Positions 18,001 through 21,000 of a stretch of DNA of 64,000 bases are shown here, piece after piece; positions within the stretch are counted from its first letter, which is position 1, and every line of letters starts with the position of its first letter. The stretch is taken from the NCBI RefSeq assembly GCF_054482525.1, contig NZ_CM137006.1, one strand, 5' to 3'. The position numbers are program-made.

Positions 18001-21000
18001 CATGCTCCAAATTGCAGGATATCGTTCAACGATTCGAGTCCGGAACACTATTCGCTATGGAGGCATGTTCAACTTCTCGTTCTGGGGAATGAACGTTCAG
18101 GACTATGGAATATCTCCTGGCTATTCCCTGCGCAACAGCATCATTTTTGGTTAAAAAATAACATTATTCTGAATATATAGAAAAGGAACTCGTCCTGGAC
18201 GAGTCCTATTAAAAATGCATATCATATTCACCTCACCGGAAAACGATTAAAAATCAGTAAGAACTGCTTCTGCCTATATTATATATGTAATATATATTAT
18301 GATTTCCTTTTCACTTTCAATGAAAACTGTTTTGGCGTTATACCAAAATAACTTTTAAAGTTACGGATAAAATATGATGTGCTAACATATCCAACCTCAT
18401 CAGATATACTATTAATATGTTTTTCAGTCGTCGTTATCAATCTTGCTGCATGTTGCATTCTAATATCCAGAATCAAATTATTAAAATTATTATTTTCTTT
18501 TTCAAGTTTTTTCCGAATTGAGACTTCAGACATATGTAAAACATTTGCCAGATCAACTAATCGCCATGATTTTGACAGATCAGATTCTATTATTGACTTT
18601 AATTTTTCTGTGAAAGTAGAGTCTGTTGAAACAGATAATGAGCAAACCAAAGATTCAATATCATCAACTTTAGATAACAAATAAGTAATATTATAAATTA
18701 GTCTATGATGTGGGACATTCGCCTCTGTTATTATTTTAAATATTTCTGTATCTGTCTTATCCGCCGTGCAATTAAAAATTCTACTTCGCATAGAACCAAC
18801 TTTATGTGGATTCAGTAACAATGGTTCCATGACTTTGCAGATACAGCTTAATATATTGTTGTCTATGTGGAAAATATCATAAGGCATGCCTTTACCTAAC
18901 ACGTTAAGTGTAACATCAATGACTGTATTTTTTTCAATATAACATATTGATTCAGGAGGAATATTAATAACCCCCCCATCTATTGTTTTAACCAGTAGTT
19001 GGGCATTGCGAAGATAAATAATAGCACAATTGTAGAATCTAATCTTTTTAAGAACCAATGTAGAGTGACAGGATATCTCTCCTCTAACAGCAAGCCTCAT
19101 ATTACTTAAAGCATTTTGACTATTCATACAGTCACCCCCATGCTTTGTAACAATATAGTTTCATGGGATATCCACTCTGTAAACTCGGAAATAACGCAAA
19201 GATGAATACTTCCCGGTAAAAAGTTTCGCATCGACATATCAACTAATTTCATAGACTATAAATAGTTAGTCACTATGATGATAAAATTAATTGACTCTGA
19301 TAATAGTTACGTCATGAAAAAAATGAAAATAAAATCAGTTGATGTTATAGATAACATCTAAAAAGAATTGGAAGCTTCCGTGTCGTTTCAGCACCAAATT
19401 TAATTTTTATCATTCTTATTCTATAATAAATCTTACTTACACTTAAACATGTAATCTTTGAAATTTCTTTTATTTTTCTCCGCTTAATGAAATAGAGGTA
19501 AAGAATCTCTCGTTCAGTATTATTAAGAGTTCGAAGAATTTGTTCTGGTGGATGCGTATAATCAATTGATAACCGATTCCCATAGTGGATAGTTATATTA
19601 TCAGCACATATGCATTTAACAGGTCCCCCTGAAAAAAGAAGACTGTATAAAAAATAATTACTATTATCGCAAATTATATAAACATGATTATATTGCTGAA
19701 CGGCCTCATATACAGAGGCACGACCACTGAACTCAAAACATTTATACTCTTCATCCTGACTTGAAAAATATAAGAGACCATTTTTTAAATAAAAATCTTT
19801 TGTAACCATTATTAGAGCAACGGTCATAGCACATATAAAATATTAGAAACCTGAACTGAATCCAACTATAAGCTAAAGTAAAGAATAAAGCCACTCTAAA
19901 AAATAGCAGCATAAGATAAAATTTTACACTCCAGAATATCCAATAGATAAGCATATTTGACTAGCTATAACAATAAATCAATAAGAAAACCTGAACAATA
20001 TGTCCAGGTTTTCTTTTTTATCTACTCTCCTGCTCAGAATGTATAACGAATATTAGCATTTATTAACTTATCAATATTGTATGAACCGAACTCAGAACGC
20101 TCCACATTCAGACTTATCCTAGTGTTTTCTTTAATTTTAGTATTTACCCCGACATTGAATACCACTCTGCTATCTTTACCATTATTAATATATGTATCAC
20201 CTGCCAGATCCTTGAACGCTGTCACAGTAGGCTTAAATAAATCGTACTGATAATTAATCCCAGTCAGTGCTGTCATTTCCCAGTCTTTGCCGCGGAATGT
20301 TTTGCCAAATTCAATTCCTGTGCGACCAATCAATGGTTGCATCTGCTTACGTTGCATATAGATCTCCCCCCCATTGAATTGCCAGGCAAACTGATTCTCA
20401 GATACAGTACCGTAGATCAACTCTGTTTGCGGCTGTATATATGTTTCGTCAGGTAAGGAAAAACGCCAACCGGCCTCAGCGCCCAAATACCAGGAGTGCG
20501 AGCCATAATCTTGTTCTGGCATTCCTAACGCACTTGATGAGTAATGATTGTCATGACGCACATATTTCCCGATAGTATCTACATAGAGTCCAGAGTCAAA
20601 CATAGCTGAAGCGTACACACCAATACCCGTTGATTTGGTTCTTCCTGACCAACCAGTTCCCCGGTTATTACTGCTTGTAAATGTCGCCGTTACTCCAGTA
20701 AATAACTCTCCGCCTTCAATTATATGTTTCCTGTCTGCCCCAATTTGCAAGTGCGTATAACTTCCGGTAAATCCATCAGTAGCTGAGCCCGAACCACTGT
20801 TAAGTCTAGCCCATGCCCCAGTTTCACCATGGGTATGGCGTAAGTCCCCCATACGATCATTCAGATTATTAATTTCTGTAATAAAGTTTTTATAACTGAG
20901 ATCCATAAAACTCTTGCCTGTCCGCAAAGCGGCTTTATCAGGCTGTATGTAAAATCCCTCCAGACGCCATTGCTTATTAACGTCGGTCTCCAACACATCA

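Follow-up and report, generated by a model that had tools for sequence, protein, structure and literature searches.

The window analysed here, a stretch of 64,000 nucleotides, contains the tagB/tagC island of E. coli inserted at yjdJ, and this island is home to two adjacent regulator genes on the minus strand (Table 1). Both ORFs are present exactly as the sequence-only reading had given them (18297-19827), and their location between two SPATE genes and beside a fimbrial operon is borne out by ORFs and annotation. The island and its "hypothetical regulatory proteins" have already been published, and its products TagB and TagC are cytotoxic SPATEs present in about 10% of uropathogenic E. coli, ST131 included (PMC6592367). 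A literature search returned no published account of tagB/tagC control. Expression of tagB and tagC in strain QT598 is alike in LB, M63 and the mouse bladder, and strong conditional control is therefore not evident. A variant of the tag island possesses a 'PefC/AfrB family' usher.

Table 1. Features of the tagB/tagC island and its regulator pair, in window coordinates
Feature	Position	Strand	Basis and remarks
Left 300-nt direct repeat (yjdJ), island boundary	12727..13026	.	Right copy 28356-28655; agrees with PMC6592367
tagC SPATE autotransporter gene, 1309 aa, candidate target	13212..17141	-	ORF; length and GDSGS motif as in PMC6592367
Second composite box copy, TTTTGTTTATC-N9-TATTTTT, candidate operator	17410..17436	-	About 270-295 nt upstream of tagC start
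Intrinsic terminator	18186..18206	-	Terminator scan; about 90 nt after araC stop codon
RegA-type AraC/XylS regulator gene, 276 aa	18297..19127	-	ORF, 831 nt; HTH_18; Rns-type full-length match
217-bp spacer between small gene and araC	19128..19344	-	Last ~70 nt before araC ATG conserved (alignment A5)
Small regulator gene, 160 aa	19345..19827	-	Truncated receiver-like domain ~3-74, disordered linker ~79-94, LuxR/GerE-type HTH ~95-157
Candidate small-gene promoter	19865..19893	-	Read from sequence; weak -35 TGGCTT 19893-19888, 17-nt spacer, -10 TATAGT 19870-19865
Candidate Rns/AggR-type box AAAATTTTATC, then N9-TATTTTT, upstream of small gene	19899..19925	-	Conserved
Intrinsic terminator after tagB, separating tagB from small gene	19983..20015	-	Terminator scan
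tagB SPATE autotransporter gene, candidate target	20034..23888	-	ORF; annotated start about 23876
Chaperone-usher fimbrial operon (191-aa subunit, chaperone, usher), candidate target	24349..28246	+	Divergent from tagB

The 276-aa protein carries an AraC-type double helix-turn-helix (HTH) at its C-terminus, and the profile search that had been proposed as a check on the AraC assignment recovers it clearly (HTH_18, 4.9e-15; HTH_AraC, 1.2e-10). Homology is not confined to this region and includes the N-terminal (dimerisation/ligand) domain: the protein matches Rns (6xiu) with E=1.7e-30, query residues 23-269 aligning to chain residues 11-259, CsvR with 4.9e-30 and ToxT with about 1e-13, and proteins of the Rns/CsvR/ToxT type are delimited by a length of about 265-277 aa. 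By its sequence, the 276-aa protein is thus an AraC regulator of the Rns/AggR/ToxT group over its whole length, and its gene is under constraint, with a dN/dS of 0.10-0.13. Like Rns/CfaD and CsvR of ETEC and AggR of EAEC, to which it is homologous from end to end, N-terminal domain included (E about 1e-30), it is encoded by an AT-rich, horizontally acquired gene accompanied by candidate A/T-tract-TATC boxes and is associated with fimbriae and dispersin/CexE-type genes. It differs from them in having no more than 34% identity to Rns across 194 residues, and in the residues of the ligand pocket. H20 and R75, which hold the fatty-acid carboxylate in Rns, are replaced by Y32 and H87, whereas the pocket landmark Y71 is kept as Y83 (residue roles in Rns from PMC12379584). 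Ligand control of the protein may differ because of the two replacements, although it may still possess a ligand pocket.

The earlier description of this protein as a Rns/AggR-like activator holds for its group and for its full length, N-terminal domain included, but its closest characterised relative is neither Rns nor AggR; by gene length and synteny it is probably RegA of Citrobacter rodentium. This placement follows from the length of C. rodentium regA (4361653-4362483), which at 831 nt equals that of the window araC gene, from the layout and spacing of the locus, and from ROD_41311, a 'putative DNA binding protein' gene (4360940-4361440, 501 nt) that lies 212 bp upstream of regA and is a homologue of the small gene. 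The C. rodentium locus has the same layout as the Citrobacter-like locus L008 (3079-3618 on the minus strand, 4068-7790, 8001-8501 and 8713-9543), namely a divergent kfc-type fimbrial subunit gene, an autotransporter gene, the small gene and the AraC gene; kfcC (4356019-4356546, reverse strand) lies 5.1 kb upstream of regA, a spacing that is the same in L008. The window AraC protein is 72% identical to that of L008. A scan of genome contigs for AraC relatives returned C. amalonaticus and distant AraC loci, C. rodentium not being among its matches. In AFDB50, both C. rodentium and E. coli SMS-3-5 have homologues of the small protein. RegA, an AraC-like protein that responds to bicarbonate, activates adcA, the kfc fimbriae, grlRA and a dispersin-like protein, and is essential for C. 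rodentium virulence. Two publications describe it as a bicarbonate-responsive activator of kfc (PMC6180029; PMC5554520). Autotransporter, fimbriae and dispersin are cargo types common to both systems, dispersin being found in sister loci of the window, whereas the E. coli island lacks a LEE/grlRA target and has two SPATEs and a three-gene fimbrial operon. With the tagB/tagC regulator placed in the RegA clade, a model already tested there becomes available, in which an autotransporter and a pilus are activated in response to bicarbonate.

The 160-aa ORF upstream of araC is left unannotated by the NCBI pipeline in most genomes, has no obvious Shine-Dalgarno sequence in the window, and occurs elsewhere as truncated copies, some of which are cut by a Tn3-family element. 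These features would suit a gene in decay or an ORF that arose by chance in AT-rich DNA, an explanation that is exceedingly improbable and is already contradicted by the selection analysis, where a dN/dS of 0.19-0.22 with saturated dS indicates purifying selection. Also against it are homologues that are full-length and keep the HTH even at 27% identity, a confidently predicted fold, and a C. rodentium orthologue that is transcribed and regulated. The 160-aa ORF is a real gene, and it belongs to a tiny family confined to a few Enterobacteriaceae.

Structure models of the small protein contain four successive beta-alpha units and then an HTH with the four-helix fold of GerE. Its best whole-chain structural matches are NarL/FixJ response regulators composed of a receiver and a LuxR domain, VpsT and EvgA are among the matches, and the C-terminus superposes on GerE, NarL and DegU. 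The fourth helix of the HTH bears a KxG-x-x-T/R-x-x-L motif typical of GerE and aligns to GerE, VraR and VqmA. A full receiver, characterised by (beta-alpha)x5, an acidic pocket, a phospho-acceptor Asp and a conserved Thr/Ser and Lys, is not found, as the receiver-like domain ends after beta-4, without alpha4-beta5-alpha5 and without the conserved Thr or Lys; Asp54, Cys53 and Cys72 are conserved at its 'active-site' end. As modelled, the small protein is NarL/FixJ-like, with a truncated receiver that lacks phosphorylation machinery and a C-terminal GerE-type HTH. The N-terminal domain, formerly regarded as unrecognised, can now be described from the models and structural matches as a truncated receiver-like alpha/beta domain. 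The label of LuxR-HTH protein is upheld by structure comparison and only by that route, because the Pfam GerE profile does not match the window protein; the profile matches 1 of 14 family members, at 5e-3, and a Pfam GerE assignment is therefore not obtained. A profile-versus-PDB search gave only marginal values, 0.027 for GerE and 0.057 for the VraR DNA-binding domain. The same architecture, a receiver-like alpha/beta domain joined to a four-helix HTH of GerE type, is seen in NarL/FixJ regulators with degenerate receivers (RcsA, MatA/EcpR, BglJ and GadE), and the gene for MatA/EcpR, which opens a fimbrial locus, resembles the small gene in its setting. The small protein differs from these regulators in being much shorter, in having a receiver cut after beta-4, and in giving no match to RcsA, GadE or EcpR-type families in NCBIfam at E<=1.

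The sole Pfam match of the small protein is a sigma-70 region-4-like HTH at residues 95-141. Identity as an ECF/sigma-70 factor is rejected, given that sigma region 2 is absent and the TIGR02937 score is 23.4 bits against a curated cutoff of 42.9. The match could nevertheless reflect a mimic of sigma-70 region 4 that modulates contact between AraC and RNA polymerase or occupies -35-like DNA, acting as an anti-activator or brake in the manner of ANR/Aar. PMC5554520 describes ANR/Aar as small accessory proteins whose genes are linked to those of AraC virulence regulators, by which they are activated. As anti-activators that accompany Rns-group regulators they resemble the small protein in being linked accessory proteins, but they are helical proteins of about 7.5 kDa without an HTH, whereas the small protein is 18 kDa and has a DNA-binding domain. 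Such a mimic is improbable, since the low TIGR02937 score and missing region 2, the alignment of the GerE-type fourth helix and the whole-chain matches to receiver-LuxR response regulators all speak against it.

The two genes form a conserved unit in which the small LuxR-type gene precedes a RegA/Rns-type AraC activator gene. Wherever the surroundings of a lineage's copy are available, the small gene sits immediately 5' of the RegA-type AraC gene and is co-oriented with it, across a gap of 169-229 bp and with an AraC gene of 273-279 aa. Intact pairs are present in the window and in loci L002, L003, L006, L008/9, L011, L014/15, L016, L017/18, L019 and L099, and in L012/13 the two genes are split by an IS. 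The cassette occurs in Escherichia, Citrobacter, Klebsiella and Enterobacter, where its cargo varies by locus (SPATEs, three kinds of fimbriae, dispersin/Aat-like genes and capU/virK-like genes), and it always adjoins SPATEs, fimbriae or dispersin. Divergences of the AraC and small proteins correlate (r=0.82). The small gene is absent from the AraC loci compared at 30-40% identity, and L003, L016 and L002 hold extra AraC paralogues without a small partner. Searched by megablast against E. coli genomes, the L016 module gave no match. In a Klebsiella plasmid copy the AraC protein is 98% identical to that of the window and the small protein 81%, suggesting that the two genes can recombine apart. 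To our knowledge, no small LuxR-type partner gene accompanies rns or aggR. A literature search on ROD_41311 and regB returned no name, study or described role for the small gene. The upstream neighbour of regA has apparently never been examined, and both the conserved cassette and the family of the small protein appear to be uncharacterised.

The box AAAATTTTATC upstream of the small gene fits both the AggR consensus WWWWWWWTATC (PMC6392122) and the Rns consensus (PMC12379584). Its TATC is invariant or nearly so in an alignment of 10 diverged loci (A7), and in each of the nine lineages compared TATC-N9-TATTTTT precedes the small-gene ATG by 88-102 nt, the full form being W7TATC-N9-TATTTTT. Composite box matches number 4 in the window against 0.41 expected, three of them inside the island, and copies are also present upstream of a dispersin gene in L003. 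Simple W7TATC-like strings, of which the window has 16 against 6.7 expected, are common in AT-rich DNA, and intergenic regions contain many relaxed matches. The region 23889-24348, which had been singled out as a place to search for Rns-type sites, yields a candidate W7TATC box (23948-23958, +) that precedes the tagB start by 82 nt, and L017 and L099 have comparable boxes at -92 and -94. Across loci the divergent SPATE/fimbrial promoters have changed too much for an informative alignment, and this box, found at -82 to -94 in three lineages, is the only recurring element. The TGG and TATAGT blocks of the candidate small-gene promoter are conserved (A7), and the distance from box to candidate -10 is 44 bp, compared with 21-23 bp in AggR-dependent promoters (PMC6392122). 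A candidate AggR-type box, TAACTATTATC (19309-19299), is also present in the 217-bp spacer, 21 nt upstream of CATAGT.

Intrinsic terminators flank the pair, the scan found no terminator-like site in the spacer between the two genes, and the hairpin after tagB is kept in L017 and L008 with changed stem bases. Together with the conserved gene order and spacing and the correlated divergences, this arrangement would suit an obligatory bicistronic operon whose products form a heteromeric activator, neither being active alone. A possible precedent is AfrR/AfrS of the AF/R1 pilus operon in rabbit EPEC RDEC-1, where an AraC-type regulator and a small novel protein reportedly activate the fimbrial subunit gene jointly (work ascribed to Cantey et al. 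1999). The likeness to the cassette lies in an AraC-type regulator paired with a second small protein; no member of the small-protein family is named AfrS, and no RDEC-type plasmid was matched, a divergent query adding no plasmid matches. Expression data from C. rodentium (Connolly 2018 supplement) contradict a strict bicistronic operon in that organism: expression of ROD_41311 falls 26.5-fold in LB relative to DMEM/5% CO2 (FDR 2.5e-13), whereas regA is absent from the list of differentially expressed genes and has about 21,000 reads in LB. The abundance of regA under conditions in which ROD_41311 is strongly reduced suggests that regA has its own promoter. Moreover, RegA studied alone is reported to activate its targets, and AraC paralogues exist without a small partner. 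A heteromeric activator from an obligatory operon is thus very unlikely, and C. rodentium expression fits an activator- or bicarbonate-dependent promoter for ROD_41311 and a separate one for regA. Two further candidate features of the spacer were rejected. An RNA thermometer or structured leader before araC, considered by analogy to yscW-lcrF and toxT, is not indicated by the 88-nt region (z=-0.27 against shuffles), and the most that the leader alignment supports is a weak hairpin of 7 bp around the AUG (-3.3 kcal/mol). A 42-aa upstream ORF (19124-19252) that overlaps the araC start was rejected as coding, since neither L003 nor other loci preserve its frame.

On balance, it is probable that the RegA-type AraC protein activates the island genes and the small gene through TATC boxes, and that the small protein co-regulates the same genes in a feed-forward arrangement. 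The AraC protein would bind A/T-tract-TATC boxes in the AT-rich island promoters, namely the conserved box before the small gene, the similar box upstream of tagC and those of the divergent tagB/fimbrial region. Once bound, it would turn on expression of the autotransporters and the pilus, in the way that RegA acts on adcA and kfc of C. rodentium. The small gene would itself be a target through an activator-dependent promoter, araC would in addition have a promoter of its own within the spacer, and the small protein would serve as a second, DNA-binding co-regulator of the same surface and secreted factors, completing a feed-forward pair. The self-contained regulon proposed in the sequence-only reading is still an inferred one, strengthened by the conserved synteny and the Rns/AggR-type box. 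More tentatively, the small pseudo-receiver/LuxR protein could be a dedicated partner of RegA-type activators in a two-protein switch that has been overlooked even in C. rodentium (ROD_41311). It would then act as a co-activator or gate beside or on the AraC protein at A/T-TATC promoters, and its receiver-like domain, with Asp54, Cys53 and Cys72, may admit a second signal. A small protein that modulates RegA-type activity would change the view of AraC virulence regulators of the RegA clade and of how inhibitors are targeted at them; without such a role, the pair would be an ordinary island-borne one. Because the partner gene is conserved, its role can be tested inexpensively in ExPEC as well as in C. 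rodentium.

A rival and rather unlikely case treats the small protein as no more than a passenger target of the AraC protein, with a function separate from it, for example as an RcsB-dependent auxiliary regulator like RcsA, MatA/EcpR, BglJ or GadE that cross-regulates motility or other adhesins, while the AraC protein alone runs the island genes. The architecture shared with the degenerate-receiver LuxR regulators, the different regulation of the small gene and regA in C. rodentium, and the evolutionary recombination between the two genes are consistent with a passenger. The lack of RcsA, GadE or EcpR-type matches argues against one, as does the strict adjacency and orientation of the small gene to a single AraC clade, which, across diverse cargo and replicons, exceeds what membership of a regulon needs.

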